The notes under the pieces are model-generated. The model made no database searches. It was not told the origin of the DNA and worked only from the letters and a program-made list of their open reading frames with translations. The translations under genes were made by a program, and so were the position numbers. Below, piece after piece: positions 3,529 through 18,438 of a stretch of 30,132 bases of DNA; within the stretch, counting starts at the first letter, position 1, and each line of letters starts with the position of its first letter. Origin of the DNA: Clostridia bacterium (GTDB lineage: Bacteria > Bacillota > Clostridia > Oscillospirales > CAG-272). The DNA lies in assembly GCA_017518025.1 (NCBI GenBank), contig JAFWWR010000110.1, positions 1 through 30,132 of the forward strand, read 5' to 3'.

Positions 3529-5247
3529 ATGAGAGTATCGAAACTTCTCGGACAGAGGTTCAAGAATCCGCCCTCGGACTGCGTTATCGAGTCCCACGCG
3601 CTGATGGTGCGGGGCGGCTACATGAAATACATGGCCAACGGCATCTATTCGCTCTTTATGCCGGGCCGCCGCATCGTCCGCAAGATCGAGCAGATCATCA
3701 GGGAAGAAATGGACAAGGCGGGAGGGCAGGAGGTCCTGTTCCCGGTCGCCATGCCCGCCTCTCTCTGGGAGGAATCCGGCAGGTATTCCTCCATCGGATC
3801 TGAGCTCGCCCGCTGGACGGACAGATCCGGCAACAAGATGGTCCTCGGCATGACCCACGAGGAGGCCGCGGTGCACCTTGCCCGGGACACCGCCGCGTCC
3901 TACGCCGACTATCCCTTCATGATCTATCAGATACAGACCAAGTTCCGCGACGAGCCCCGTGCCCGCGGCGGCCTGATCCGCGTCCGCGAGTTCACCATGA
4001 AGGACGCATATTCCTTCCACACCTCGAAGGAGGACCTGGAGGAGTACTACGCCCTGCTCCATAAATCCTACGAGACCATCTTCCGCCGCGCAGGCGCGAA
4101 GAACGTGATCTCCGTCAAGAGCGACTCCGGCATGATGGGCGGCTCCGTCTCCCACGAGTTCATGCTTCTCTCCGACGTAGGCGAGGACACCCTGGCGATT
4201 TGTCCCGAGTGCGGCTACAGCGCCAACATGGAGGCCGCCGAGGTGAAGATCGAAAACGAGGCGGCGGAGAGCGCGGAGATCGAAAAGATCCACACCCCCG
4301 GATGCACGACGATCGAGGATCTGGGGAAGTTCCTCAAAGCCGATCCGAAGCGGTTTGCCAAGGCGGTGGTCTATCAGAAGAACGAGGACGACAGCTATAT
4401 AGTCGTGTTCGTCCGCGGCGACCTTGACGTGAACGAGACCAAGCTCCGCAACTACCTCGGATTCGAGATACATCCCGCAACAGTCACCGAGGAGTCCGGC
4501 ATCGTCGCCGGATTCATCGGCCCGATAGGTCTTCCCGCGGGAGTCAGGGTCGTGTTCGACTCGTCTTTGAAGGGCATTCACAACGTAGTCAGCGGCGCGG
4601 GCGAGCGCGATTACCACCTCTCCGGCATCGACATCGAGCGCGACGTTCCCGGGACCCGGTTCGCCGACGTGGCGAAGATCTTCGCCGGGGCGGTCTGCCC
4701 CGTGTGCGGCAAGCCCGTCATCACCATAGAAAAAGGCATCGAGGTGGGCAATATCTTCCAGCTCGGCACCAAATACACCAAGGCAATGGGTATGACGTAC
4801 CTCGACGCGAACGGCGAGGCGCAGTATCCCGTCATGGGGTGCTACGGCATCGGCGTCGGCCGCCTTGCGGCGTCCATCTGCCAGGAGAGCCACGACGACT
4901 ACGGTCCCATCTGGCCCATGTCCATCGCGCCGTGGCAGGTGGAGGTGTGCAATCTCCGCTGCGACGACGAGGAGGTCACCCGTCGCGCCGAGGGGATCTA
5001 CGAGGAGCTTGAAAAGCTCGGCGTTGAAGTTCTTTACGACGACCGCGATATCAGACCGGGCGCCATGTTCGCCGACGCGGACCTGTTCGGCGTGCCGATC
5101 CGGGTGGTCGTCTCCCCCAAGACGGCGGAGCGTGGCGTGTTCGAGGTCTCCTACCGCGACAAATCCTTCCGCGGCGACGTCCCCTACGACGGCGCGGCGG
5201 AACAGATCGCCGGCATGGTCAAAAAGGAACTCGGGAAATACGAATAA
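3529..5247 (+). CDS. proS: Prolyl-tRNA synthetase (long bacterial type with INS editing domain)
   Basis: 572 aa. Class II motifs LGMTHEE, YQIQTKFRDEPRARGGLIRVREFTMKDAYSF, GIEVGNIFQLGTKY, MGCYGIGVGR, and a C-terminal anticodon-binding domain (VLYDDR...GAMFADADLFG). Confidence 0.97.
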   Translation: MRVSKLLGQRFKNPPSDCVIESHALMVRGGYMKYMANGIYSLFMPGRRIVRKIEQIIREEMDKAGGQEVLFPVAMPASLWEESGRYSSIGSELARWTDRSGNKMVLGMTHEEAAVHLARDTAASYADYPFMIYQIQTKFRDEPRARGGLIRVREFTMKDAYSFHTSKEDLEEYYALLHKSYETIFRRAGAKNVISVKSDSGMMGGSVSHEFMLLSDVGEDTLAICPECGYSANMEAAEVKIENEAAESAEIEKIHTPGCTTIEDLGKFLKADPKRFAKAVVYQKNEDDSYIVVFVRGDLDVNETKLRNYLGFEIHPATVTEESGIVAGFIGPIGLPAGVRVVFDSSLKGIHNVVSGAGERDYHLSGIDIERDVPGTRFADVAKIFAGAVCPVCGKPVITIEKGIEVGNIFQLGTKYTKAMGMTYLDANGEAQYPVMGCYGIGVGRLAASICQESHDDYGPIWPMSIAPWQVEVCNLRCDDEEVTRRAEGIYEELEKLGVEVLYDDRDIRPGAMFADADLFGVPIRVVVSPKTAERGVFEVSYRDKSFRGDVPYDGAAEQIAGMVKKELGKYE

Positions 5248-5255
5248 AACGAAAG

Positions 5256-5293
5256 GATCCGCCGCGCAGCCAGCGCGGCGGATCTTCGTTTTT
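5256..5293. terminator. Bidirectional intrinsic terminator between convergent proS and kinase genes
   Basis: Perfect 12-bp stem GATCCGCCGCGC / GCGCGGCGGATC with a 5-nt loop. Followed by TTCGTTTTT and preceded by an A-rich tract. Confidence 0.8.
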
Positions 5294-5344
5294 CTCTGTC
5301 AGATAACAGCAGTGCTTTTTCGGTCTGCGCCCGATGAGGCGGCC

Positions 5345-6427
5345 TCATCCGGCGATTTTTTTCACGATGGACTCCATTTCGCCCATCTTTCTCTCCATAT
5401 CCTCGATGAGCTTGAACTGGGTCCGGCATCTGATGAGGTTGTGCTCGGGGTAAGCCGTCTTGAAGTAGGTGTCGCCGCTGAGATAGTCGGCGAGGAACCG
5501 CATACCGCATTCCAGCGTCAGCAGCTTGACCGAGAAGGGGAGAAGCTCCAGCTCCCGCTCCGTGATGGAGGGAAGAGTCTCGACGAATCCCCGTGTGAAC
5601 GCCTCGAAGTTCGCCAGATCGAACCAGATCTTGTTGAGATCCGGCTCGTCCTCCGCGCCGGTGGAGCCGGCGAAGCGGAGCGCGTCGCCGAAGTCGTAGA
5701 GCAGGGAACCCGGCATCACGGTATCGAGGTCAATGACACATACGCCCTCGCCCGTTTTCTCGTCCAGCAGGACGTTGTTCAGCTTCGTGTCATTGTGGGT
5801 GACGCGCACCGGCAGTATGCCGGACGCGATATCGTCCACCACCACGCCCACCGCGTCCTCGCGGTCCTTCACGAACTGTATCTCCCGGGCTGCTCCCGCG
5901 GCTCTGCCGACGGAGTCGGCCTCGACTGCGGCGAGAAAATCGGCGTATCTCTTTCTGGTGTCGTGGAATCTCGGGATGACCTCGTACAGCTTCTCGGCGG
6001 GGAAGTCCGCCAGCATGTTCTGGAACCTGCCGAAGGCCTTGGCGGCCTGATAAAGCTGCTCCGGGCTCTCCACCACGTCGTAGGAACGCGCGCCGTCGAT
6101 GAAGACGTACATCCTGTAGTATTCGCCGTCGTTCGATTTGTAGAACGGCTTGCCGTCCACCGTCTCGATCAGGTTCAGGGTCCCCCTCATGGGATCGCCG
6201 CCCTCTGCGATGATCTTACGGCGCAGATGCTCGGTCACGAGCTTGATGTTCTCCATGACCTCTTCGGGTTTCTTAAAAACGTTCTTGTTGATCTTCTGGA
6301 GTATGTACGACGGGTCCGTCGCCACCAGATACGTGTCGTTGATATGGCCGTTGCCGTAGGAAGAAGGGTTGAGTTCGATGCTGAAATGAGTCAGTATCTC
6401 CCTGATGGATTCAGTCACTTTTATCAT
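5345..6427 (-). CDS. Aminoglycoside-phosphotransferase-family kinase, N-acetylhexosamine 1-kinase (NahK)-like
   Basis: 360 aa. GNGHINDTY, YILQKIN, Brenner-type RVTHNDTKLNNVL, CVIDLDTVMPG, YDFGDALR, and FLADYLSGDTYFKT motifs. The start could instead be GTG at 6418. Confidence 0.8.
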   Translation of the reverse strand: MIKVTESIREILTHFSIELNPSSYGNGHINDTYLVATDPSYILQKINKNVFKKPEEVMENIKLVTEHLRRKIIAEGGDPMRGTLNLIETVDGKPFYKSNDGEYYRMYVFIDGARSYDVVESPEQLYQAAKAFGRFQNMLADFPAEKLYEVIPRFHDTRKRYADFLAAVEADSVGRAAGAAREIQFVKDREDAVGVVVDDIASGILPVRVTHNDTKLNNVLLDEKTGEGVCVIDLDTVMPGSLLYDFGDALRFAGSTGAEDEPDLNKIWFDLANFEAFTRGFVETLPSITERELELLPFSVKLLTLECGMRFLADYLSGDTYFKTAYPEHNLIRCRTQFKLIEDMERKMGEMESIVKKIAG

Positions 6428-6716: not shown

Positions 6717-7382
6717 ATGGCGGATATTTTCGAGCTTTTCAGAAGGATACGGAAGACGGAGGAGCCCAAGGGGCCTCCCGAATACATTATAGTCGGTCTC
6801 GGCAATCCCGGTGACAAATACGAGGGGACACGCCACAACACCGGATTTTCGGCAATCGACTTTATAGCGGACCGGCTTTCCGTAAAGATAAAGGACCTGA
6901 AATTCAAGTCCCTGGTCGCCCGGTGCTCCGTCGACGGCACCCCCGTCCTGCTTCTCAAGCCCCAGACCTTCATGAATCTTTCGGGTCAGGCGGTGAAGGA
7001 GGCCTGCGACTTCTACAAGATCCCGCCGGAGCGGCTCGTCGTCATCTCCGACGACGTGAACCTTGACGCGGGGCGGCTCCGCATACGCGTGCGCGGCTCC
7101 GACGGCGGGCAGAAGGGGCTTTACAACATCATCTACCTCCTCAACTCGGACGAGTTTCCCCGCATCCGTATCGGCGTGGGGAAGAAGCCCCGGGAGGATT
7201 ACGACCTGGCGGACTGGGTCCTGAGCAGGCCGGACGAGGCGGACGCCGCGGCCGTGGCGTCGACCTTCCCGGACGTCTGGGAGGCGGTCCGCATGATCGT
7301 GGACGGCAAAACGGAGGCCGCCATGGGCGCATTCAACGGTAAAAAGAAGACGAGCAACGACGCGGAGGAGAGCCGTTCATGA
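6717..7382 (+). CDS. pth: Peptidyl-tRNA hydrolase
   Basis: 221 aa from ATG 6717 (SD-like AGAGAGG upstream; the ORF track's earlier start is upstream sequence). Motifs IVGLGNPG, TRHNTGF, LKPQTFMNLSG, DDVNL, GSDGGQKG, RIRIGVG. Confidence 0.95.
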   Translation: MADIFELFRRIRKTEEPKGPPEYIIVGLGNPGDKYEGTRHNTGFSAIDFIADRLSVKIKDLKFKSLVARCSVDGTPVLLLKPQTFMNLSGQAVKEACDFYKIPPERLVVISDDVNLDAGRLRIRVRGSDGGQKGLYNIIYLLNSDEFPRIRIGVGKKPREDYDLADWVLSRPDEADAAAVASTFPDVWEAVRMIVDGKTEAAMGAFNGKKKTSNDAEESRS

Positions 7383-10300
7383 GTTATGACGTCGCCTCGG
7401 CGATACTGAGGCAGAACAGAGAATACAGAGACCTGAGCGATCTCGCTTTCTCCGCCGGAGGGCGGGGGGCGATCCGCCCAGCCGTAGCCGGGGGCCTTCC
7501 GGAGACCGCCCGGTCTGTTTTCGTGCTTGCGTTCGCGGAGGACGTGACCCTTTCCGGCAAGTCGGTGCTGCTCCTGTTCCCCGACGACCGTGAGGCGTCG
7601 ACAGCCGCCGCCGCGCTGACGGAGCGCGGGGTCGACGCGCTGTTTTACCCGTCGCGGGACTATAATTTCAACAATATCACCACGTCTCACGAGACGGAGA
7701 ACGACCGCCTCCGGGTGCTGAACCGCCTTTTCGAGCCGGATTCCGCCCCCGCGGCCGTCTGCGCCGGCATTTACGGCGCACTACAGATCACAGTCGGCAG
7801 GGAGGAGTTCGTCTCCAGGACTACGGTCATAAGGAGCGCCGATACCGTCGACACGGACGCCCTTTGCCTGAAACTGACCGAAAACGGCTACACCCGCGTG
7901 GAACTGGTGGAGGGCCCCGGACAGTTCGCCGTCCGCGGCGGCATCGTGGATGTGTTCCCGCCCCTCGGACGCGCGTGCAGGATGGAGCTTTTCGGCGACG
8001 AGATCGACCGCCTCGGTTATTTCGACGCTGTGACTCAGCGGTTCACCGATTTCAGCGACAGCATCGTGATCCCACCGGCGCGGGAGGTCATCCTGACGGA
8101 AGAGATACGCGAGGAACTTACGAAACTTCTGACGGCGCAGCTCAAAAAGCTCGCGCGCATGACGGACGAGCGCTCGGACAGAGCCGGGCGGATCATCCTC
8201 TCGGAGCTCGCCCGGCTCCGTGAGGGCATGGACCCCGAATCGTCCGATAAATACATCCCGGTGATCTGCCGTGGCGAGGAATGTCTCCTCGATCACTTCG
8301 ACGGAGTCGTCGTGCTGGACGGATCGTTTGAACTCAAATCGAGAGCAGAGGCGGCGGAGACGCTGCTTGCGCAGAGTCTTGCAGGTCTTCTCGAGACCGG
8401 CGAGCTTTTCACCTCCTTCGATACCGACAGATACGTCGCCGGCTTCGGCAAGGTCACGGAAAAATCACGCACCGCCTTCACCGTGTACGCCGCGGGGCTC
8501 ATCGGATCGGCGGAATCGGCGGGGATAAAGAACGGCGTGACTTTCGACTTCGGCGCGCGCCACGCCCCCTCTTATAAGAGAAACTCGGAACTTTTCTTCG
8601 ACGACGTCCGGTCCTTCGTGCGCCGCGGTTACACCGTGGGCGTGCTTTTCGCCACGGAAAGCGAGAGGAGCAACGTCTCGCAGAAGCTGGTGGAGGAAGG
8701 TATCACCGTATACCCCTTCGGCGGCGACGAACTCCCGGCGACGGACGGAACACGCGGTATCGTCGTCACGGCTGCGGGCAGTCTGCCCGGCGGTTTCGAG
8801 CTTGCCGCTTCCCGGGGCGCTCTCCTTGATTTTTCCGGCGCCGGCACCGTAAGACGGCGGCTCGTGAGCAAGAAATTCAAGGCGATGAAGGACGCCGCCG
8901 AGACCATACTTTCATATTCCGACCTGGAGGTGGGCGATCTGGTAGTCCACGCCGCGTACGGGATCGGTATGTACCGCGGCATCGAGAATCTCACCGTGGA
9001 CGGCGTGTCCCGCGACTACGTGAAGCTGGATTACGCCGGCGGCGACAACCTGTTCCTGCCGGTGGATCAGCTCGATCTCGTGTCGAAATACATCGGCGCG
9101 GGCGCCGATTCGGGCGCGGTAAAGCTGTCGAAGATGGGCGGCGCCGACTGGAACAGAGCCCGCACAAAAGCAAAAGAAGCCACGAAGGAAATGGCGAAGG
9201 AGCTCATCGAGCTTTACGCCCGCCGCCGCAGGACCAAAGGCATCGCCTTCGAGCCGGACGACGAGATGAGCCGGGAGTTCGCCTCCACCTTCGAATACGA
9301 AGAGACCGACGGCCAGACCCGCGCCATAGACGACGTGCGCCGCGACATGGAGGCGCCGTACCCCATGGACCGCCTCATCTGCGGCGACGTGGGCTACGGC
9401 AAGACGGAAGTCGCCCTTCGCGCCGCCTTCAAGGCGGTGATGAGCGGAAAGCAGGTAGCGGTCCTTGTGCCCACGACGCTGCTGGCGTACCAGCATTATA
9501 AGAGCTTCGTGACACGCCTCAGGGCGTTCCCGGTGTCCGTCGATATGCTCTCCCGGTTCAGAACGAGGGGAGAGCAGCAGGCGTCCCTCCGCAAGCTCAG
9601 GCACGGCGACACCGATATCATCATCGGCACTCACCGGCTCATTTCCGCCGACGTGGAGTTCCGGGATCTCGGCCTTGTGGTGGTGGACGAGGAACAGCGT
9701 TTCGGCGTGGCGCAGAAGGAAAAACTGAAAAAGATCGCGGCGAACGCGGACGTGCTGACGCTGACCGCCACGCCCATTCCGCGGACGCTGAATATGGCCA
9801 TGGGCGGCATCGTCGACATGAGCATCCTGGACGAGGCGCCGGGCCAGCGCTCGCCGGTGCAGACCTACGTCCTCGAATACGACGACGTGATAATCTACGA
9901 GGCGATCCGCCGGGAGCTCCGCCGGGACGGGCAGGTGTTCTATCTGTTCAACCGGGTGGAGGGCATCTACGGCGTCGCTCGAAGGATACAGGAAAACATC
10001 CCGGAGGCGCGGATCGCCGTGGCGCACGGAAAAATGGACCGGGAGGAGCTGGAGGAGATCTGGGAGGCGATCATCCGAGGCGAGGTGGACGTGCTTGTCT
10101 GCACCACCATCATCGAAACGGGCGTCGACATCCCCAACGCAAACACGCTTATAATCGAGAATTCCGACAACTACGGTCTCGCCCAGCTTCACCAGATCAG
10201 GGGCCGCGTGGGCAGATCCGGAAGACGCGCCTACGCGTACTTCACGTACCGCAAGAACAAGGAACTGACCGAAGTCGCCGAAAAGCGGCTTTCCGCCATC

Positions 10301-10948
10301 AAGGAATACGCCGAGTTCGGCGCCGGGTACAAGATCGCCCTGCGGGACCTGGAGATCAGGGGCGCGGGAAATCTTCTCGGCGCGGAACAGCACGGCCACA
10401 TGGAGGCGGTGGGCTACGATCTGTATATGAAGCTGCTCAGCGAGGCGGTCATCGAAGAAAAGGGCGAGATCGTGGAGAAGCCCGCGGAGTGCGCCGTGGA
10501 CCTGCGCCTCGACGCGTACCTGCCGAAGAGCTATATCCCGTCCTCTCCTCAGAGAATGGAGATTTACAAAAAACTTGCCAGGATCGGCTCGGAGGACGAC
10601 TACGAGGACATGATCGACGAGCTGTGCGACCGCTTCGGCGAGCCGCCGACCACGGCGATGAACCTTTGCAGGATCGCGCTGGTCCGCGCCCTCGGGGCGA
10701 ACTCCGGGATAACGAAGATCGACGAGAGGGACGGCGCTGTCCGCCTCTTCCCGGCGGAGCCGGATCCCGCTGCCATCACCCGCGTGGCGGACGAATACCC
10801 CCGCGGGACGGTCCGGGCGGTGCCCGGCAATCCGCTCTCCCTTATCTGCCGCGTGCCTCGCGGGATGAAAACCGTGGATTTCGTCACGGGTCTGCTGAAA
10901 AAATACGCGGGAGCTCGGGAAGCCGACGGGGAAGGAGAAGACTTATGA
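7379..10948 (+). CDS. mfd: Transcription-repair coupling factor
   Basis: 1189 aa. UvrB-homology region (GQFAVRGGIVDVFP), CarD-like RID (GDLVVHAAYGIG), DRLICGDVGYGKTEVA, VVDEEQRFGV, LTATPIPRT, QIRGRVGRS, DLEIRGAGNLLG, and a C-terminal TRCF domain. ATGA overlap with pth. Confidence 0.97.
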   Translation: MSYDVASAILRQNREYRDLSDLAFSAGGRGAIRPAVAGGLPETARSVFVLAFAEDVTLSGKSVLLLFPDDREASTAAAALTERGVDALFYPSRDYNFNNITTSHETENDRLRVLNRLFEPDSAPAAVCAGIYGALQITVGREEFVSRTTVIRSADTVDTDALCLKLTENGYTRVELVEGPGQFAVRGGIVDVFPPLGRACRMELFGDEIDRLGYFDAVTQRFTDFSDSIVIPPAREVILTEEIREELTKLLTAQLKKLARMTDERSDRAGRIILSELARLREGMDPESSDKYIPVICRGEECLLDHFDGVVVLDGSFELKSRAEAAETLLAQSLAGLLETGELFTSFDTDRYVAGFGKVTEKSRTAFTVYAAGLIGSAESAGIKNGVTFDFGARHAPSYKRNSELFFDDVRSFVRRGYTVGVLFATESERSNVSQKLVEEGITVYPFGGDELPATDGTRGIVVTAAGSLPGGFELAASRGALLDFSGAGTVRRRLVSKKFKAMKDAAETILSYSDLEVGDLVVHAAYGIGMYRGIENLTVDGVSRDYVKLDYAGGDNLFLPVDQLDLVSKYIGAGADSGAVKLSKMGGADWNRARTKAKEATKEMAKELIELYARRRRTKGIAFEPDDEMSREFASTFEYEETDGQTRAIDDVRRDMEAPYPMDRLICGDVGYGKTEVALRAAFKAVMSGKQVAVLVPTTLLAYQHYKSFVTRLRAFPVSVDMLSRFRTRGEQQASLRKLRHGDTDIIIGTHRLISADVEFRDLGLVVVDEEQRFGVAQKEKLKKIAANADVLTLTATPIPRTLNMAMGGIVDMSILDEAPGQRSPVQTYVLEYDDVIIYEAIRRELRRDGQVFYLFNRVEGIYGVARRIQENIPEARIAVAHGKMDREELEEIWEAIIRGEVDVLVCTTIIETGVDIPNANTLIIENSDNYGLAQLHQIRGRVGRSGRRAYAYFTYRKNKELTEVAEKRLSAIKEYAEFGAGYKIALRDLEIRGAGNLLGAEQHGHMEAVGYDLYMKLLSEAVIEEKGEIVEKPAECAVDLRLDAYLPKSYIPSSPQRMEIYKKLARIGSEDDYEDMIDELCDRFGEPPTTAMNLCRIALVRALGANSGITKIDERDGAVRLFPAEPDPAAITRVADEYPRGTVRAVPGNPLSLICRVPRGMKTVDFVTGLLKKYAGAREADGEGEDL

Positions 10949-12042
10949 CAGAACTGATATCCCCGGCGAGAGGAGCCGTTTTGTCCGTCCTCACCGACGT
11001 GCAGAGAGAATTCCTGCGTCGGCAGAAGGAGGGACTTATCGACGGCTCGGCGGAAAAGCACTATTGGGACAGCTCCGCCTTCGGCTGGCTCCCCGACAGC
11101 CGCGATCCGCGCCGGGACCTCACCGCCCCCGCCGCGGTCCTCATCCGGTTCAGGACGGACGATCCTCTCGCGCCCGTGAAGGTGGAGGTGTCGGAGAGGG
11201 ACGATTTTTCGGTCCCCGCGGCCGTAACGATCGGCAGGATAGAGCAATCTGCGGAGGAAGAGGGAGTCTTCCATGCGATCCTCACCAATCTCACCCCCGG
11301 GAGACGGTATTTCTGGCGCGTCACCGCGGGAGAGCTGTCCGCAACGGGAGAGTTCTCCGCCCGGGACGAGGAAATGTGCCCGAAAGATATCGAAGGCACC
11401 GCCAACGTGCGCGATATCGGCGGGTATCCCGCGGCGGGCGGCAAAAGGATAAAATACGGACTCTTTTACCGCGGCGGCGCCCTGGACAGCAGGGTCGAGG
11501 ACCGGTACCGTCTCACCCGGCGGGGAAAAGAGACCGTCAACGACGTGCTGAAGATCAGAACGGAGATCGACCTGCGTGGCGAAGACGGCGTGTTCCATGA
11601 AAGCGAGGCGGGACCGGATCTGAAGTACGTCATGATCCCGTCGCTCCATTACAGCGACATGATCCGCGACGAAGGCCCGGCGCTGCTGAAACGCATTTTT
11701 GAACTGCTCTGCGACAGAGAGAATTACCCCGTTTACATACACTGTCAGGCGGGAGCCGACCGCACCGGCGTGGCGGTCATGTTCCTGCTGGGACTACTCG
11801 GCGTGCCGGACGACGTGATCGAGGCGGACTATAACGTCACGTCCCTTTCCATCGACGACCGGCGTGACTGGCGCGGCAGTCTGCACATGGACGACTTTCT
11901 CGCGACTCTCGGCGGGATCTCGCCGGCGCCCACCGTGTCGGAATCGTTGAGGAATTTCCTCTATACCGTTGGCATTCCCGCCGAAAAACTCGACGGATTG
12001 CGCGATTTCTTTCTTGATGCGACAAAAGGAGACCTGATATGA
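10945..12042 (+). CDS. Tyrosine-protein phosphatase (Y_phosphatase3/IphP/MptpB-like) with N-terminal FN3-like domain, paralog 1
   Basis: 365 aa from ATG 10945 (SD GGAG, ATGA overlap with the mfd stop). Motifs NVRDIGGY, FYRGG, IRTEIDLR, P-loop HCQAGADRTG, DYNVTS. The N-terminal domain ends TNLTPGRRYFWRV. Confidence 0.88.
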   Translation: MTELISPARGAVLSVLTDVQREFLRRQKEGLIDGSAEKHYWDSSAFGWLPDSRDPRRDLTAPAAVLIRFRTDDPLAPVKVEVSERDDFSVPAAVTIGRIEQSAEEEGVFHAILTNLTPGRRYFWRVTAGELSATGEFSARDEEMCPKDIEGTANVRDIGGYPAAGGKRIKYGLFYRGGALDSRVEDRYRLTRRGKETVNDVLKIRTEIDLRGEDGVFHESEAGPDLKYVMIPSLHYSDMIRDEGPALLKRIFELLCDRENYPVYIHCQAGADRTGVAVMFLLGLLGVPDDVIEADYNVTSLSIDDRRDWRGSLHMDDFLATLGGISPAPTVSESLRNFLYTVGIPAEKLDGLRDFFLDATKGDLI

Positions 12043-13127
12043 ACATAACGCTTATCTCACCCGCCGACGGACTGCGGTTCTCGGTGCTTGACGACCTCTA
12101 TCGTGAGTTTATCCGCATGTTTGAGTTGAAAAAAGGAAGCGAAGACCGCGGCGTGATGCCGGAATTCGGTCACCGGGACGGACTTGACTACGATTGCACC
12201 TATCCGAAGTCCGTCATTTTCCGCTGGAGATCGGACGATCCCCTTGCACGGACCCTGCTCGAGATCTCCGACGACGAGACCTTCGCCGCGCCTTCGCTCG
12301 TCACGATCCACACCGTCCGTCAGGCGGCGGACGGGGAGGGGGAGTACTTCGCCGAGGGGACCAATTTCCGGGTGGGACGTAAATACTTCTGGCGCGTCAC
12401 GTCCGGCGAAGCCGTATCCGAGGCGCGCTCCTTTGAGACGTACCCCGACAAGATACGCCCCGTTGAGATCAGCGGGATCTACAACGTCCGCGACGTGGGC
12501 GGAAGGATGACCGACTCCGGCAGACGGATAAAGCAGGGCCTTCTCTATCGGGGGACCCAGTTCGAGCACATGCCCGAGGACAAATCGGCGCTCAACGACC
12601 ACGGGCGGCTCATGATCCTGCGCGATCTGGGCATAAAAACGGAACTTGACCTCCGCGGAGACGACGACATGGACGAGAACCCCGTCGTACCGGAGCTTCG
12701 AGTGTACCGTTTCCTCGGCGGCTCGTATTACGAGACCTTTCCGGAGTGCGACTACCGGGAGGCGCTCCGCGGCACGTTCCGCGTGCTCCTCGACGAGTCG
12801 AACTACCCGATTTACATGCACTGCGCCGCCGGAGCGGACCGCACCGGCACCGTGGCGTATTATCTTGAATCGATCCTCGGAGTGCCCGTGGACGATATTA
12901 TGCTCGGATACAAGATAACCGGTCTGTCCCTACACGATCACGAGATGGACGGCTGGTACAAAAAAAGAGACGTGGAAAAGCATCTCGGACTGCTTTGGGG
13001 CAAGTACGGCAAGGACGTCCCCTTCCGCGAGCTGATGAAGCTCGATCTGATGGATCTCGGTTTTACGGAGGACGATTTCGACAAGCTGCGCCGTATCTTC
13101 CTCGAGGACGCGGAGAATAAGGGATGA
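12039..13127 (+). CDS. FN3-like + tyrosine-protein phosphatase, paralog 2
   Basis: 362 aa. NVRDVGG, LLYRG, GIKTELDLR, HCAAGADRTG. ATGA overlap with paralog 1. Confidence 0.88.
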   Translation: MNITLISPADGLRFSVLDDLYREFIRMFELKKGSEDRGVMPEFGHRDGLDYDCTYPKSVIFRWRSDDPLARTLLEISDDETFAAPSLVTIHTVRQAADGEGEYFAEGTNFRVGRKYFWRVTSGEAVSEARSFETYPDKIRPVEISGIYNVRDVGGRMTDSGRRIKQGLLYRGTQFEHMPEDKSALNDHGRLMILRDLGIKTELDLRGDDDMDENPVVPELRVYRFLGGSYYETFPECDYREALRGTFRVLLDESNYPIYMHCAAGADRTGTVAYYLESILGVPVDDIMLGYKITGLSLHDHEMDGWYKKRDVEKHLGLLWGKYGKDVPFRELMKLDLMDLGFTEDDFDKLRRIFLEDAENKG

Positions 13128-14164
13128 TCGAACTTTTATCTCCGTCAAACGGCGCTCAGGTCGCCGTCACGACCGATCTTCAGCGGGAATTCGTCCGTCG
13201 CCTGAGGGCGGGGGAGATGGACGGAAACGCTCACGAATACGACTGGCTCCCGAAGTTTGACCGGAACGGCGTCGATCCGTCCCGCCCGGCTCCCGTGACT
13301 CTCGAGTGGATCTGCGACGGGGACGCGGAGGTGGAGTTGTTCCGGAACGGCGCTCCCGCCGCGGCTGAGATCGGACCGGTGATATGCCGCTGCGAAAACG
13401 GTCGGCGCGTCTGCTCCTCCGAGGTGTCGAATCTCATGACAGGCACGAAGTACGAATGGCGCGTCAGATCAGAAAACGCCGTCAGCGAAACGCGTGAACT
13501 CGTTACCGATCGCGGCGTGAGATTCGTGGCGCTGGACGGCATCTCCAACGTGCGGGATATAGGCGGCTACCCTCTGCCGGGCGGAAAAAGAGTAAAGCAG
13601 GGCATGATCTACCGCGGCACCTGCCCCCTCGGAAACTTCGAGCAAACTGCGCTGACGGAGAAGGGGAGGAGCACGTTCACAGGCGTTCTCGGGATTAAAA
13701 CGGAGATCGACCTGCGCGCCGAAGTGGTCGGAACGGACGAGGCGAGACCCGCCGATCCGTCGGTGGAATATCACGTTATGCCGATCGATCCCTATGAGAT
13801 GGCTCTCGGAGAAAAAAGCCGAGAAAAACTCGCGGAAGTTTTTCACATACTGTGCGACGGAAGCAAATACCCCGTCTACGTCCATTGCGGCGCAGGCGCC
13901 GACAGAACGGCGACGGTGGCGTTCATCGCCGAGACCCTTCTCGGGATGGATAGGGACGACGTAAAACTCGACTATAACCTGACCACTCTGTCGTTTATCG
14001 CCGTCCGGAGCTGGGACGAAAACGAACTGATCCCGCGATTCTTCGACGCCGCGGCAAAAGAGACGGGCAAAACGGACAGACAGCCGTCGATCCGCTCTCT
14101 TCTTCTTTCGCTCGGCGTGTCGGAAGCAGAGCTTGAACAATTCCGTTCGATAATGATCGAATGA
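13124..14164 (+). CDS. FN3-like + tyrosine-protein phosphatase, paralog 3
   Basis: 346 aa. NVRDIGGY, MIYRG, GIKTEIDLR, HCGAGADRTA. ATGA overlap with paralog 2. Confidence 0.88.
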   Translation: MIELLSPSNGAQVAVTTDLQREFVRRLRAGEMDGNAHEYDWLPKFDRNGVDPSRPAPVTLEWICDGDAEVELFRNGAPAAAEIGPVICRCENGRRVCSSEVSNLMTGTKYEWRVRSENAVSETRELVTDRGVRFVALDGISNVRDIGGYPLPGGKRVKQGMIYRGTCPLGNFEQTALTEKGRSTFTGVLGIKTEIDLRAEVVGTDEARPADPSVEYHVMPIDPYEMALGEKSREKLAEVFHILCDGSKYPVYVHCGAGADRTATVAFIAETLLGMDRDDVKLDYNLTTLSFIAVRSWDENELIPRFFDAAAKETGKTDRQPSIRSLLLSLGVSEAELEQFRSIMIE

Positions 14165-14180
14165 GCGAAAGGAAAAAGAT

Positions 14181-15227
14181 ATGATAAAGCTGATTTCACC
14201 CAAAGACGGCGCCTCCGTTTCCGTAATGACGGACGTGCAGAAGGAATTCGTCCGACTCCACCGTGCGGGCGACTGCGAAGAGATCGACCGGCGGCTGAGA
14301 GAACTTACCGAGGGCCACGCCCACGATTTCTCCCGCCCCGCGGAGGCGATATTCAGCTGGTACTGCGACGATCCCACCGTGGTGATGACGCTCGAGATCT
14401 CCGGGAGCGAAGATTTCGACGACCCCGCCCCGGTACATATCGGAACGATCCGCCAGTCTGCGGAGGACGGCTCCTATTTCGTCCCCGTCACCAATTTTTA
14501 TACGGGCGCGAAGTACTTCTGGCGGGTGGTCTGCGGAGAGGAGATCTCCTCTGTACGCACCTTTTCCACGCCGGAAGGCGGACTGAGGCCGGTGTTCGTT
14601 GACAACGTGCCGAACTTCCGCGATCTCGGGGGACGTATGACCGCCTCGGGCAGACGGATCAGGCAGGGACTCCTGTACCGAGGAACTCACCTCGAAGAGG
14701 ATGAAGGAAGCGGACTTACCGAGCCGGGAAGGGAAATATTCGTCCGGGAACTGGGGATAAAGACCGAACTTGATCTCCGGGAGGAGTCCTTCGGCAAGGT
14801 GGAATCGTCCCCGGCGGGGGAGGGCGTGCGCCTTGTCCTCGTGCCGTTTGACAGTTCCTGGGGCGGCACGCTGAATGACCGCGGCATGGGGCAGCTGAAG
14901 ATGATATTTGACGTCATCACTGATAAAAACAACTACCCGGTATACGTTCATTGCTACACCGGCGCGGACAGAACGGGATTTTTCGGCGTCGTTCTCGGAG
15001 CGATACTGGGCGTTCCCGACAGCGAGATCATTCTTGACTATGAATTCACCTCGCTCCACGAGGAGCGCGACTGGGAGAGGTGCGAGGGCGCCGAGGGCTA
15101 CTTCGGATTCCTCGACGAGACGTACCCCGGCCACACGCCGGGCGAGCTTGTGCTGATCCACCTGCGTGAGTACGGCATCGACCCGGATCTCATCGAAAAA
15201 GTGCGGGAGATCATGCTCGAAGACTGA
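14181..15227 (+). CDS. FN3-like + tyrosine-protein phosphatase, paralog 4
   Basis: 348 aa. NFRDLGG, LLYRG, GIKTELDLR, HCYTGADRTG. Confidence 0.88.
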   Translation: MIKLISPKDGASVSVMTDVQKEFVRLHRAGDCEEIDRRLRELTEGHAHDFSRPAEAIFSWYCDDPTVVMTLEISGSEDFDDPAPVHIGTIRQSAEDGSYFVPVTNFYTGAKYFWRVVCGEEISSVRTFSTPEGGLRPVFVDNVPNFRDLGGRMTASGRRIRQGLLYRGTHLEEDEGSGLTEPGREIFVRELGIKTELDLREESFGKVESSPAGEGVRLVLVPFDSSWGGTLNDRGMGQLKMIFDVITDKNNYPVYVHCYTGADRTGFFGVVLGAILGVPDSEIILDYEFTSLHEERDWERCEGAEGYFGFLDETYPGHTPGELVLIHLREYGIDPDLIEKVREIMLED

Positions 15228-15242
15228 CCGGAGGGAGAACCG

Positions 15243-15584
15243 ATGGATCAATTTGACTGCAACTATACCGAAAACGACCTTGAAGATGCGAAGAAGTTCA
15301 GAGCGGACGTCCACAAGGAGGCGCTGGGAAAGGCGCTGCTGATCCGTCCCGACGTCACGGAAGTGATCGACAAAAACCCCGTCGAATCGTATTTTCAGAA
15401 AGTCTGGGAATACCCCGGGACGTGGTATCTCTACGCAGCGATCCCGGAGGGGTATAAAAGCCGCGACGAACTCGTCGATTCCATAGTGAGAGATACGCTC
15501 GAACACTACCGCGGGAAAAAACTGACCCGCATTTCCGTTCTTCTGGCAAAGAGAAAAAGACGAAAAAGGAGAAAAACAAAATGA
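15243..15584 (+). CDS. Hypothetical protein (113 aa)
   Basis: Good SD (GGAGGGAG) and fills the gap inside the operon; ATGA overlap with the next gene. No family recognised. The highly basic C-terminal tail may be non-native. Confidence 0.65.
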   Translation: MDQFDCNYTENDLEDAKKFRADVHKEALGKALLIRPDVTEVIDKNPVESYFQKVWEYPGTWYLYAAIPEGYKSRDELVDSIVRDTLEHYRGKKLTRISVLLAKRKRRKRRKTK

Positions 15585-16123
15585 GTAAAGTGCTTGTTAT
15601 AACCACCAGTCTCCGTGCGAGAAGCAATTCCGACGTTCTCGCAGGACGGCTGGCCGCAGGCGCGAGGGACGCCGGTCACGAGGTGGAGTGCGTTTCCCTC
15701 AAGGGTAAGAAGTTAGGTTTTTGTATCGGGTGTTTTTCGTGCCTCAAAACACAAAGATGCGCCATAAAAGACGACGCGGTGGAGATCGCGGATAAGGTCA
15801 TGAACGCGGACACGCTGGTGTTCGTCACGCCGATCTACTACTACGAGATGGCGGGTCAGATGAAAACCCTTCTCGATCGCCTGAATCCGCTTTATTCCGC
15901 CGACTACAAATTCAGGAAGGTATATATGCTCTCCGTGGCGGCGGAGGACGAGGAGACCACTCCGGTGAAGGCGGTGAACGGCCTTCAGGGCTGGGTGGAC
16001 TGCTTTGACAAGGCAGAACTTGCGGGCTCCCTCTTCTGCGGCGGCATCACCGATCCCTCGGAAGCTGAAGGGAAGGAAACGGAACTCCGGGAGGCATACG
16101 AGTTCGGAAAGTCGCTGCTTTGA
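15581..16123 (+). CDS. Flavodoxin-fold protein, iron-sulfur flavoprotein / NADPH-dependent FMN reductase family
   Basis: 180 aa. TSLRARSNS FMN-binding loop, compact CxxCxxCx5C motif (CIGCFSCLKTQRC), ADTLVFVTPIYYYEMAGQMKTLLDR. Confidence 0.85.
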   Translation: MSKVLVITTSLRARSNSDVLAGRLAAGARDAGHEVECVSLKGKKLGFCIGCFSCLKTQRCAIKDDAVEIADKVMNADTLVFVTPIYYYEMAGQMKTLLDRLNPLYSADYKFRKVYMLSVAAEDEETTPVKAVNGLQGWVDCFDKAELAGSLFCGGITDPSEAEGKETELREAYEFGKSLL

Positions 16124-16157
16124 GGCGGCCGGTATAAAACGTACGAGAGGAAAAAAC

Positions 16158-17231
16158 ATGATCTCGCTTATCTCACCGAAAGACGGCGCTTCCGTCTCCG
16201 TTATGACGGCGGCGCAAAAGGAATTCGTCCGCCGTCACAGGGCCGGGGAGCTGCACGACGGCGACGACCCGTTCCGGATCATCGCGGACGGAGACGTCAC
16301 CGACGCGTCCGCCCCCGCGACGGCGGTATTCAGCTGGTCCTGCGACGACAAGACGGCGCTTATGACCCTTGAGATCTCCGACAGAGAGGACTTTTCGGTC
16401 CTTTCCGGGCTCTGCGTCAGCCCTGTCCGTCAGTCCGCGGAGGATGGCGTGTATTTCGCCGGGGTGACGAACTTCCTCCTCGGTCAAAAATACTACTGGC
16501 GCGTGAGAGCGGGCGGCGAGACGTCCGCCACGCGTACATTCACCACCCCCTGGGACGATATCCGCGTCATGGACGTGGATTTCGTGCCGAATTTCCGCGA
16601 TCTCGGGGGACGAATGACCGCCTCCGGCAGGCGCGTGAAGCAGGGTCTCCTTTACCGGGGCACCTTCATCGACTGGCGCGGCGAGCGGTGCGGTCTCACC
16701 TGGAGAGGGAAGAACACCTTTGCCCGGGAGCTTGGGATAAAGACCGAGATCGACCTCCGTATCGAGGCCCTCGGCAGGCATACGACCAGTCCCGCCGGGG
16801 ACGGGATAAGATACGAATTCATCCCCATGGAAAATCCCTTCGGAGGCACGTTCAACGAGCGCGGCATGGGCGAGCTGAGAAAAATATTCGACGTTCTGTT
16901 CGACCCGTCGGCGTACCCGGTCTATTTCCACTGCCACTCCGGCGCGGACCGGACCGGATTTCTCGGGATCGTTCTGGACGGCGTCCTCGGGATCCCGGAC
17001 GACGACATCCGACTGAACTACAACTTCACGTCGCTGTACGAGCACCGGAACTGGGACGAGTGCGACGACGCGAAGGGATATTTCGGCTACCTTGACGAGA
17101 TATGTCCCGGCCGCACCATGTCGGAACAGGTCATGTTCCATCTGACTGAGTACGGAATCGACCGGGAAAAACTCGAAAAAATGAGAGAATTTTTGCTTGA
17201 AGATCGACAGAGAACGTACAGCCGGAGGTGA
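16158..17231 (+). CDS. FN3-like + tyrosine-protein phosphatase, paralog 5 (closest to paralog 4)
   Basis: 357 aa from ATG 16158 (SD GAGAGG). MISLISPKDGASVSVMT, NFRDLGGRMTASG, GIKTEIDLR, HCHSGADRTG. Confidence 0.88.
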   Translation: MISLISPKDGASVSVMTAAQKEFVRRHRAGELHDGDDPFRIIADGDVTDASAPATAVFSWSCDDKTALMTLEISDREDFSVLSGLCVSPVRQSAEDGVYFAGVTNFLLGQKYYWRVRAGGETSATRTFTTPWDDIRVMDVDFVPNFRDLGGRMTASGRRVKQGLLYRGTFIDWRGERCGLTWRGKNTFARELGIKTEIDLRIEALGRHTTSPAGDGIRYEFIPMENPFGGTFNERGMGELRKIFDVLFDPSAYPVYFHCHSGADRTGFLGIVLDGVLGIPDDDIRLNYNFTSLYEHRNWDECDDAKGYFGYLDEICPGRTMSEQVMFHLTEYGIDREKLEKMREFLLEDRQRTYSRR

Positions 17232-18438
17232 TCCTACGGAAGAGAAAAAACTGTTCCGCACGGCGGACCGCCGGGAGTGGCGGAGGTGGCTTTCCGACCA
17301 TTTCGAGACGGAAAACGAGATATGGTTCATCTTCCCCACGAAGGACTCCGGCGAGCCCTCGATATCGTATAACGACGCGGTGGAGGAGGCGCTCTGCTTC
17401 GGCTGGATCGACGGACGTGCCGGTACGCTCGACGGCGCCCGCCACATCCGCCGTTTTACGCCGAGACGAAAGGGAAGCGGCTATTCCCGCCCGAATATCG
17501 AGCGGCTGATCCGCATGGACGGCCTCGGGATGATCCACCCGAGGGTGAGAGATTCCGTGGCGGACCTCATCGGGACGCCGTTCGTTTTCCCGGAGGATAT
17601 TCTGGAAGCGATCCGCGGAGACGTGACCGCGTGGGAGAATTTTCTCTCATTTCCGGAGCCGTACCGCAGGATCCGCGTCGCCTACGTGGATGCGGCGAGG
17701 AAAAGACCCGCGGAATTTGAAAAACGGCTCGGGAACCTGATAAAAAAATCGAGAGAGAACAAAATGATCGCCGGTTACGGCGGGATCGACGTCTATTACC
17801 CCGACTGCGGGGAAACGGCGTCCGCGATCCTTGTTACGGCGTTCGAGCCCTTCGGCGGTGAGATGATCAACCCGACGGAAACGGTCCTCCGGCGGCTCCC
17901 CGACCGTATCGGCGCCATCGCTCTGAAAAAGGCGCTCCTTCCGGTGGAGTTCGTGAGAGCCCGGGAGATCGCCTGCGCGGAGTACGACTCCGCGAAGCCC
18001 TGCGCCGTGGTGATGCTGGGGCAGGCGGGAGGCCGCGCCGCGGTCACTCCCGAGACGACCGGGAAAAACCTGATGAACGCCCGGATCCCCGACAACGCGG
18101 GATTTACTCCTCACGGCGTTCCCGTATCGGAGGGCGGGCCGGAAACGCTTCGCTCCACCGCCGACGTCGCCGGGATCGCCGACGCGGTACGCTCGATCGG
18201 GATCCCCTGCGAGATCTCCGACGACGCGGGAGTCTACGTCTGCAACGCTCTGCTTTACGGTATGCTGGAGCACAACGGGGGCGCCGTCCCTACGGTTTTT
18301 ATACACGTTCCTTACTCGAGTGAGCAGGGACACGCCGACAAGCCGTTCATGGAACAGGACGACATTTATCGCGCTGTCGCCGCCGCCCTCGGTTCGGTGG
18401 CAATGGGGATCATCGAGTCACGCGCCGCCGCGGGCTGA
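17197..18438 (+). CDS. Fusion of a YdeI/OmdA-family domain and pyroglutamyl-peptidase I (Pcp-like); start uncertain (TTG 17197 or ACG 17236)
   Basis: N-half: REWRRWL...YNDAVEEALCFGWIDG...RFTPRRKGSGYS...PEDILEAI...YRRIRVAYV (YdeI/OmpD-associated pattern). C-half: ILVTAFEPFGGEMINP, GQAGGR, VTPE (Glu), SDDAGVYVCN (Cys), FIHVP (His). Single open frame. Confidence 0.85.
   Translation: MKIDRERTAGGDPTEEKKLFRTADRREWRRWLSDHFETENEIWFIFPTKDSGEPSISYNDAVEEALCFGWIDGRAGTLDGARHIRRFTPRRKGSGYSRPNIERLIRMDGLGMIHPRVRDSVADLIGTPFVFPEDILEAIRGDVTAWENFLSFPEPYRRIRVAYVDAARKRPAEFEKRLGNLIKKSRENKMIAGYGGIDVYYPDCGETASAILVTAFEPFGGEMINPTETVLRRLPDRIGAIALKKALLPVEFVRAREIACAEYDSAKPCAVVMLGQAGGRAAVTPETTGKNLMNARIPDNAGFTPHGVPVSEGGPETLRSTADVAGIADAVRSIGIPCEISDDAGVYVCNALLYGMLEHNGGAVPTVFIHVPYSSEQGHADKPFMEQDDIYRAVAAALGSVAMGIIESRAAAG

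Follow-up and report, generated by a model that had tools for sequence, protein, structure and literature searches.

To our knowledge, nearly all Cys-based enzymes of the Y_phosphatase3 family described so far are either virulence factors that are secreted (MptpB, LipA) or promiscuous phosphatases from the environment. Here, we describe five paralogous genes, W1 to W5, which encode members of this family without export signal, each fused to an N-terminal FN3-like domain. They are carried by a stretch of 30,132 nucleotides from a Clostridia bacterium (Oscillospirales, CAG-272; assembly GCA_017518025.1, contig JAFWWR010000110.1), the whole of which is called the window below. The closest described enzymes are the atypical lipid phosphatases (ALPs, Beresford et al. 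2010; MptpB/LipA type), whose signature HCXXGKDR[TA]G includes a Lys, strictly conserved, at position 5 of the loop that binds phosphate (P-loop) (PMC3091653). In Lmo1800 and LM1, mutation of the P-loop Asp reduces activity to <10%, and the Lys-to-Ala mutants lost most of their phosphoinositide activity; according to earlier work cited in the same study, Lys164 of MptpB plays the same role (PMC3091653). The count of basic P-loop residues governs activity on polyphosphorylated phosphoinositides, the residue at X2 shifts substrate preference, and protein-phosphatase activity is known for MptpB, Lmo1800 and LM1 (PMC3091653).

An earlier note, made from the letters of this DNA, had described five genes of 346 to 365 aa sharing one architecture, and this description holds for all of them. 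The five genes are as follows, with the identity to the ortholog in the sister species (genome G018; our own genome is G000).

10945..12042, + strand: W1, 365 aa, FN3-like N-domain followed by Y_phosphatase3; P-loop HCQAGADRTG; ortholog 53% identical.
12039..13127, + strand: W2, 362 aa; P-loop HCAAGADRTG; ortholog 79% identical.
13124..14164, + strand: W3, 346 aa, the fastest-diverging copy; P-loop HCGAGADRTA; ortholog 42% identical, dN 0.62.
14181..15227, + strand: W4, 348 aa, the copy modelled; P-loop HCYTGADRTG; ortholog 65% identical.
16158..17231, + strand: W5, 357 aa, closest paralog W4; P-loop HCHSGADRTG; ortholog 69% identical.

Each of the five proteins matches Y_phosphatase3 (PF13350) over about residues 140-300, with 86-112 bits (E 4e-24 to 5e-32) for a gathering cut-off of 22.2 bits, while no NCBIfam model covers them. 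Their pairwise identity is 36-43%, with the exception of the pair W4/W5 (58%), and the motifs NxRDxGG, YRG, (I/L)DLR and HCxxGADRT are invariant. The profile matches both the Clostridioides difficile protein tyrosine phosphatase (PTP; 8dhi) and MptpB (1ywf) with the DLR and P-loop motifs aligned. In the HMMER alignment, the motif containing the invariant (I/L)DLR Asp falls on the DLR of MptpB, and the P-loop on HCFAGKDRTG. We take this Asp to be the general acid, by analogy with Asp82 of MptpB. The P-loop HCxxGADRTG provides the nucleophilic Cys, the Arg that binds phosphate and the P-loop Asp. The catalytic Cys and Arg that the earlier note reported are thus indeed kept in all five proteins, and so are both Asp residues. 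From their sequences, W1-W5 look like catalytically intact, active phosphatases.

The P-loop nevertheless differs from that of the ALPs at the position that defines the group. Position 5 is Ala in the eight copies of our genome (8/8) and in 114/119 close homologs, with Lys in none of the 119, whereas position 6 is Asp in 119/119 homologs and in the five window copies. Since the defining Lys is replaced by Ala, W1-W5 fall outside the ALP group as this signature defines it. The FN3-fused, Ala-for-Lys Y_phosphatase3 proteins are a distinct, uncharacterised subfamily of the MptpB/LipA-like fold. With the ALPs (M. tuberculosis MptpB, Listeria LipA/Lmo1800, Leishmania LM1), they share the Pfam family, the fold, the Cys/Arg/Asp P-loop, the DLR Asp and the lack of a WPD loop. 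They differ by the N-terminal FN3-like domain with its helical hairpin and by the absence of the mycobacterial lid insertions; moreover, the window proteins are cytosolic and multi-copy, whereas the ALPs are secreted virulence factors. The best solved relative is the C. difficile PTP (8DHI/8DHJ; profile E 4e-19, Foldseek E 8e-13), in which NxRDxGG and the P-loop are shared. However, this protein is a single domain of 249 aa without beta-sandwich, it keeps the Lys (HCTAGKDRTG) and it is only 23-25% identical to the window proteins. Our literature search found no open paper on its function.

The missing Lys also bears on one of the roles listed by the earlier note, that of inositol-phosphate phosphatases. 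In a wider form of this proposal, W1-W5 would be inositol-phosphate (phytate-type) or phosphoinositide phosphatases, acting like PTP-like phytases or ALPs in the phytate-rich rumen. The organism does live in ruminant guts, and an ALP-type Y_phosphatase3 enzyme, Pho16B, hydrolyses InsP6 (PMC6409689). The nearest solved folds after the ALPs are the inositol pyrophosphatases Siw14 and AtPFA-DSP1, and a 'Phytase' entry of AlphaFold DB weakly shares the layout of a beta-sandwich and a PTP domain (TM 0.48). However, the window P-loops carry one basic residue only and are devoid of the Lys needed for phosphoinositide binding (PMC3091653), and W1-W5 are cytosolic whereas phytate is an extracellular polyanion. 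Because the ALP signature Lys is missing, W1-W5 would be poor candidates for phosphoinositide or phytate hydrolysis; this proposal comes out weakened and we regard it as improbable. Identity with a phytase family was rejected, as none of the five proteins (0/5) matches a phytase model in a Pfam-A scan at E <= 0.1. The PTP-like phytases of the Selenomonas ruminantium PhyA type are also rumen Cys-phosphatases with a CX5R loop and a small beta domain, but as secreted enzymes of another subfamily, with a more basic P-loop, they differ from the window proteins.

We then characterised the N-terminal domain. The first ~135 aa of W1-W5 give weak PhoD_N and Pur_ac_phosph_N matches, the best one (W1, 28.4 bits) being below the gathering cut-off of 30 bits of both models (PF16655 and PF16656). 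Across the N-domains of the family (n = 59, E <= 0.01), Pur_ac_phosph_N was detected in 39/59 and PhoD_N in 15/59, with best E-values of 6e-7 and 7.5e-8, respectively. The PAP and PhoD enzymes that define these two models also carry an FN3-like beta-sandwich N-terminal to a phosphatase domain, but their partner is a metallophosphatase instead of a Cys phosphatase. In an AlphaFold2 model of W4 built from 68 homologs (pLDDT 95.5, pTM 0.92), a beta-sandwich and a PTP fold are joined, in the order of strand 1, an inserted two-helix hairpin (residues 18-45), the rest of the sandwich up to ~130 and then the PTP-fold domain. The two-helix insertion is clade-specific. Because the pTM is high, the two domains are predicted to form a rigid unit with a fixed packing. 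Together with the PF13350 matches, this model agrees with the earlier reading of the proteins as an FN3-like domain followed by an MptpB/IphP-type CX5R phosphatase domain.

When the W4 model was searched with Foldseek, the C. difficile PTP came first (8DHJ/8DHI, E about 1e-12), followed by MptpB (1YWF, 4e-9) and then by Siw14 and AtPFA-DSP1, the N-domain part matching filamin-type Ig domains. The N-domain modelled alone (pLDDT 93.9) retrieved from the PDB only generic Ig/filamin folds with E > 1e-3. A profile of the sandwich core, searched against 1.8 billion representatives, matched 20,417 proteins at E <= 0.001, with giant multi-repeat proteins, some of them several thousand residues long, at the top. 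Such giant FN3-like repeat proteins are typically extracellular. They swamped the search, which was uninformative on phosphatase partners. In view of these matches, the sandwich core is a common bacterial FN3-like module. The whole two-domain architecture is present in AlphaFold DB clusters (TM about 0.8), under automatic names only, and the public database entries are unnamed 'tyrosine-protein phosphatases'. The sequences are therefore already public and not new, and they are uncharacterised. Our literature search, from which many subscription papers were missing, returned no paper describing the FN3-like plus phosphatase architecture or its array.

The cellular location of the family was then considered. 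No hydrophobic N-terminus or transmembrane-like segment was found in W1-W5, the top 19-residue hydropathy (1.8) corresponding to the helix after the P-loop. The start M-x-x-L-I-S-P is conserved and is common to many homologs; the start calls are therefore right and W1-W5 have no signal peptide, in line with the earlier note. The eight family copies of our genome, a 68%-complete metagenome-assembled genome (MAG) from ruminant gut, are distributed as five in the window, one on contig C136 and two adjacent on contig C285. In the two C285 copies (585 and 601 aa), the FN3-like domain and the phosphatase domain come together with a signal peptide and three SLH domains. For this reason, the family is not purely cytoplasmic: the word, which the earlier note applied to the five window genes, fits these, but not the two C285 copies. 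The C285 copies (L024:1890-3647 and 3829-5634) are 81% identical, have DLQ in place of DLR and adjoin an XRE-type HTH protein of 392 aa.

These anchored copies are among the relatives that suggest a link with carbohydrates. In another genome (G039), five tandem proteins combine CBM_4_9, a dockerin and a module made of an FN3 tail and a PTP domain, which is 29% identical to residues 101-347 of W4 (E 1e-23), the alignment starting inside the FN3-like domain and running to the end. These genes (L087:293-15606, G039:C29) encode 807-1239 aa, with one to three CBM_4_9, a type I dockerin and a Big_3 / EF-hand-like C-terminus; their P-loop is HC[ST]YGRDRTG and 4/5 start with a signal-peptide-like segment. 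They appear to form a cellulosomal phosphatase array, of which we found no description. Elsewhere, the family member P0089 sits within a gene run GH2-PTP-GH29-GH2, and other loci adjoin genes for heparinase II/III-like, CE15/GDSL/GFO, SLH beta-helix, SLH-GH43 and GH4 proteins. UxaC is found two genes away from a family member, and in our own genome the C136 copy has an alpha-L-rhamnosidase at a distance of 3 kb. Carbohydrate-type neighbours were found in roughly 8-9 of the ~14 contexts examined, a raw count from genomes dense in carbohydrate-active enzymes (CAZymes).

Because relatives are fused to SLH or to CBM4_9 and dockerin, and because many loci lie beside glycoside hydrolases or SLH beta-helix proteins, we infer a carbohydrate-associated phosphomonoesterase function. 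More precisely, W1-W5 may be cytosolic Cys-dependent phosphomonoesterases acting on carbohydrate-linked or similar small phospho-esters with a divided specificity; we propose this reading tentatively, the substrate being deduced from context, and give it somewhat less than an even chance. The module would derive from extracellular phosphatases of the glycan machinery, like the SLH-anchored and the CBM4_9 and dockerin relatives. The cytosolic paralogs would then differ in the compounds from which they strip phosphate, these being phosphorylated sugars or oligosaccharides, or small phospho-esters of a similar kind, imported during the breakdown of plant or microbial glycans. Their specificity could be set by variable surfaces and by the P-loop residues X2X3, which differ in every array member (QA, AA, GA, YT and HS from W1 to W5). 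Among the roles listed by the earlier note, a panel of sugar-phosphate phosphatases is the one that the neighbours and fusions with glycan machinery favour.

Several observations weigh against this carbohydrate link. The N-domain resembles generic Ig/filamin/FN3 folds and no known carbohydrate-binding module, and the neighbours of the window array are housekeeping genes (pth, mfd, miaA, queA) and not CAZymes. About 5 of the ~14 contexts are without any carbohydrate gene, and CAZymes are in any case common in fibre-degrading Clostridia. The cellulosomal relatives of G039, with their more basic P-loop (GRDR), may act on other substrates, and the characterised relatives MptpB and LipA dephosphorylate phosphoproteins too. 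Should the link with carbohydrates be real, rumen glycan breakdown would include phosphate removal as a neglected step, and the paralogs would offer biochemistry a ready-made specificity set; otherwise, the array remains a clean natural experiment in the birth-and-death evolution of enzyme paralogs.

In a bolder form of the carbohydrate reading, which we consider unlikely, the paralogs would be bacterial counterparts of the glucan phosphatases, i.e. a cytosolic 'glycan dephosphorylase' panel acting on imported oligosaccharides, with SLH-anchored and cellulosomal relatives doing likewise outside. Each paralog would remove a different phosphate ester so that glycoside hydrolases can finish, and phosphatases would in this case join the accepted accessory enzymes of polysaccharide degradation. 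The comparison with laforin, SEX4 and LSF2 is one of analogy only: these also associate a beta-sandwich with a Cys phosphatase, act on an intracellular phosphorylated carbohydrate and include paralogs with different positional specificity, but they are eukaryotic, their catalytic domain is of the DSP subfamily and their sandwich is a CBM20 or CBM48. In the window proteins, no CBM match was obtained, DSPc scores were 13-17 bits for a cut-off of 33.5, and no glucan phosphatase was among the top structural matches. Membership of the laforin/SEX4 class was rejected on the absence of CBM match, the DSPc scores below cut-off and the Ig/filamin-type fold of the N-domain.

The family annotation itself, tyrosine phosphatase, suggests another explanation, in which W1-W5 are protein phosphatases (acting on pTyr and/or pSer/pThr) that erase endogenous phosphorylation, and MptpB, Lmo1800 and LM1 do have protein-phosphatase activity (PMC3091653). 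A candidate source of such phosphorylation was found beside the C136 copy, where a gene for a CotH kinase is convergent to the phosphatase gene, an adjacency kept in G018. CotH is present in 17/19 genus relatives, in 1-4 copies, and the genus sporulates, SpoIVA being found in 19/19 relatives (it was not found in our own 68%-complete MAG). Absence of a signal, paralogy and fast evolution are typical of spore coat proteins. As a variant of this explanation, it is possible that the phosphatases remove CotH-type kinase marks from spore-coat or cell-envelope proteins that the mother cell makes without a signal peptide. However, the CotH protein next to the C136 copy has a lipoprotein-type signal and would be extracellular, while the neighbouring phosphatase has none, and the two genes were seen side by side in no more than two genomes, which are closely related. 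A single Hanks-type kinase was found. Furthermore, no partner kinase is present in or beside the array, since the one kinase-like gene nearby, of the APH family, is read from the other strand and lies three genes upstream, and the array is embedded in a pth-mfd operon where sporulation-type regulation is not in evidence. On balance, we find a protein-phosphatase role rather unlikely. The CotH lipoprotein gene and the signal-less paralog lie on C136 at L025:1701-3104 (G018:C105 in the sister species); they are followed by two lipoproteins of ~495 aa without family match and by the alpha-L-rhamnosidase.

Within the window, the array is located between housekeeping genes. Three other genes are needed to describe it.

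7379..10948, + strand: mfd, transcription-repair coupling factor, which anchors the array on its upstream side and is conserved there throughout the genus.
15243..15584, + strand: intervening open reading frame (ORF) of 113 aa, not a phosphatase, with a good Shine-Dalgarno site and a poly-basic (Lys/Arg) C-terminus.
15581..16123, + strand: NADPH-dependent FMN reductase / flavodoxin-like gene, 180 aa (PF03358, E 3e-22).

The tandem array announced by the earlier note does contain five paralogs, but arranged as 4+1, since the 113-aa ORF and the FMN reductase gene separate W4 from W5. Both of these genes are missing from the array of the sister species, and the 113-aa ORF has zero matches in Pfam, NCBIfam, PHROGs, PADLOC and Atlas. 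The spacing is tight: the start of W1 overlaps the stop of mfd (ATGA), W1/W2 and W2/W3 overlap by 4 nt, as do the 3' end of the 113-aa ORF and the start of the FMN reductase gene, W3 and W4 are separated by 16 nt, and intergenic gaps in the array are <=34 nt. No terminator-like site was found on the + strand inside the array, where a promoter/terminator scan did not exceed the shuffled expectation, and promoter-like sites above background occur only upstream of pth. For these reasons, and judging from gene spacing alone, pth-mfd-array-pcp fits one long transcription unit, in which mfd is probably co-transcribed with the array. The earlier note spoke of a candidate undescribed 'system'; the locus is not a multi-component one, but a birth-and-death paralog array within a housekeeping operon (pth-mfd-...).

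We then looked for the family in other genomes. All sampled species of the genus carry it (19/19), with 1-8 matches per genome; beyond the genus, the gene is patchy in the family and order, and class-wide it was detected in 15/300 genomes at E <= 1e-30. At the corresponding pth-mfd site of the sister species, five genes form an uninterrupted array, in 1:1 pairing with W1-W5 and in the same order, whereas another genus member (G002) has two copies downstream of mfd, the range at this site being 2-5 copies. In the phylogenetic tree, all eight copies of our genome fall inside a genus-only clade (SH-aLRT 88, below the 95 star). This clade supports the lineage-specific expansion that had been proposed. 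Several pairs are monophyletic, as is a four-gene array in a genome of another family (G177); owing to the monophyly of this array, tandem expansion recurred independently in that family. Taken as a whole, these genes define a large coherent uncharacterised subfamily (FN3-like fusion, Ala-for-Lys P-loop, no export signal), in which tandem arrays have formed repeatedly among fibre-degrading gut Clostridia and which has cell-wall-anchored and cellulosomal relatives. A signal-less protein of 1000 aa with three complete Y_phosphatase3 domains (HCAAGADRTG, HCAGGADRTG and HCYGGADRTG), which resembles a tandem array fused into one chain, was found at L086:486-3488 (G007:C95) and also in G010:C35 and G012:C18, i.e. 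in three species of the same genus.

The array genes diverge far faster than the genes that flank them, while being open and under purifying selection. Between our genome and the sister species, flanking proteins are 84-95% identical (dN 0.025-0.10, dS 0.53-0.68) and the non-array copies about 84% identical, compared with 42-79% for the array genes (dN 0.14-0.62, dS 1.0-2.2, omega 0.13-0.29), both domains diverging alike. At the site downstream of mfd, two other genus members (G001:C53, L030 and G002:C132, L088) share 94% identity for Mfd and 94% for one phosphatase gene, but 50% for its neighbour, which suggests that a gene was replaced locally or that the two species retained different paralogs. 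Judging from the raised dS and this 50%/94% contrast, birth-and-death turnover, or the replacement of genes by divergent copies, would account for the divergence no less than faster point substitution.

This tempo raises the question of whether the copies have distinct roles at all. They might be redundant duplicates drifting under relaxed constraint, by neutral birth-and-death at a duplication-prone site. The range of 1-8 matches among species would fit such drift, as would the dN of the W3 pair (0.62), about equal to the dS of the flanking genes (~0.6), and the fact that close genomes seem to keep different copies (50% vs 94% at one locus). However, the five genes are open with all catalytic and fold-defining motifs in both species despite a dS >1, gene-wise omega remains between 0.13 and 0.29, gene order and 1:1 pairing are conserved between the two species, and pieces of all five genes were found in RNA libraries. 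Given the purifying selection on each gene, the array genes are unlikely to be pseudogenes, and neutral drift without distinct roles is in our opinion quite unlikely.

Fast divergence and copy turnover also resemble arms-race loci, and the earlier note had suggested counter-measures against phage or competitor kinases. In a conflict or defence locus, the phosphatases would counter such kinases or process nucleotide signals, and similarities to PTP-SAK, PTP-NADK and Tc-R-P, all weak and below threshold, were indeed observed. These similarities are nevertheless explained by the shared PTP fold. PADLOC-DB and PHROG scans were empty for the five genes (PADLOC also for both intervening genes), the neighbours are housekeeping genes and not a defence island, and in the 7 metagenomic and 5 genus contexts examined no partner gene turned out to be conserved. 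A link with phage or defence is therefore not supported, and we hold a conflict or defence role, counter-kinase action included, to be very improbable.

Finally, we looked for traces of the locus in public sequencing runs. The 6.3-kb array stretch recurs almost complete in 14 DNA runs from the guts of cattle and sheep, produced by several studies, so the array is not an assembly artefact; its synteny is also shared by the independent MAG of the sister species. In four RNA libraries, low-depth contigs (2-10x) cover parts of W1-W5 with 0-7 mismatches, without any transcript end being seen. This is compatible with weak transcription of W1-W5, DNA carry-over being another possible source of these contigs. 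Two other genes of the window are worth mentioning. The single kinase-like gene in the vicinity of the array encodes an APH-family phosphotransferase (PF01636; 5345-6427, - strand). It is located between proS and pth and is 95% identical in the sister species, and no evidence linking it to the array was found. Downstream of W5, a YdeI/OmdA domain (PF13376) and a pyroglutamyl peptidase I (PF01470) are encoded in a single frame (17197-18438), whereas the counterpart in the sister species, 56% identical, has 277 aa and matches Peptidase_C15 only.

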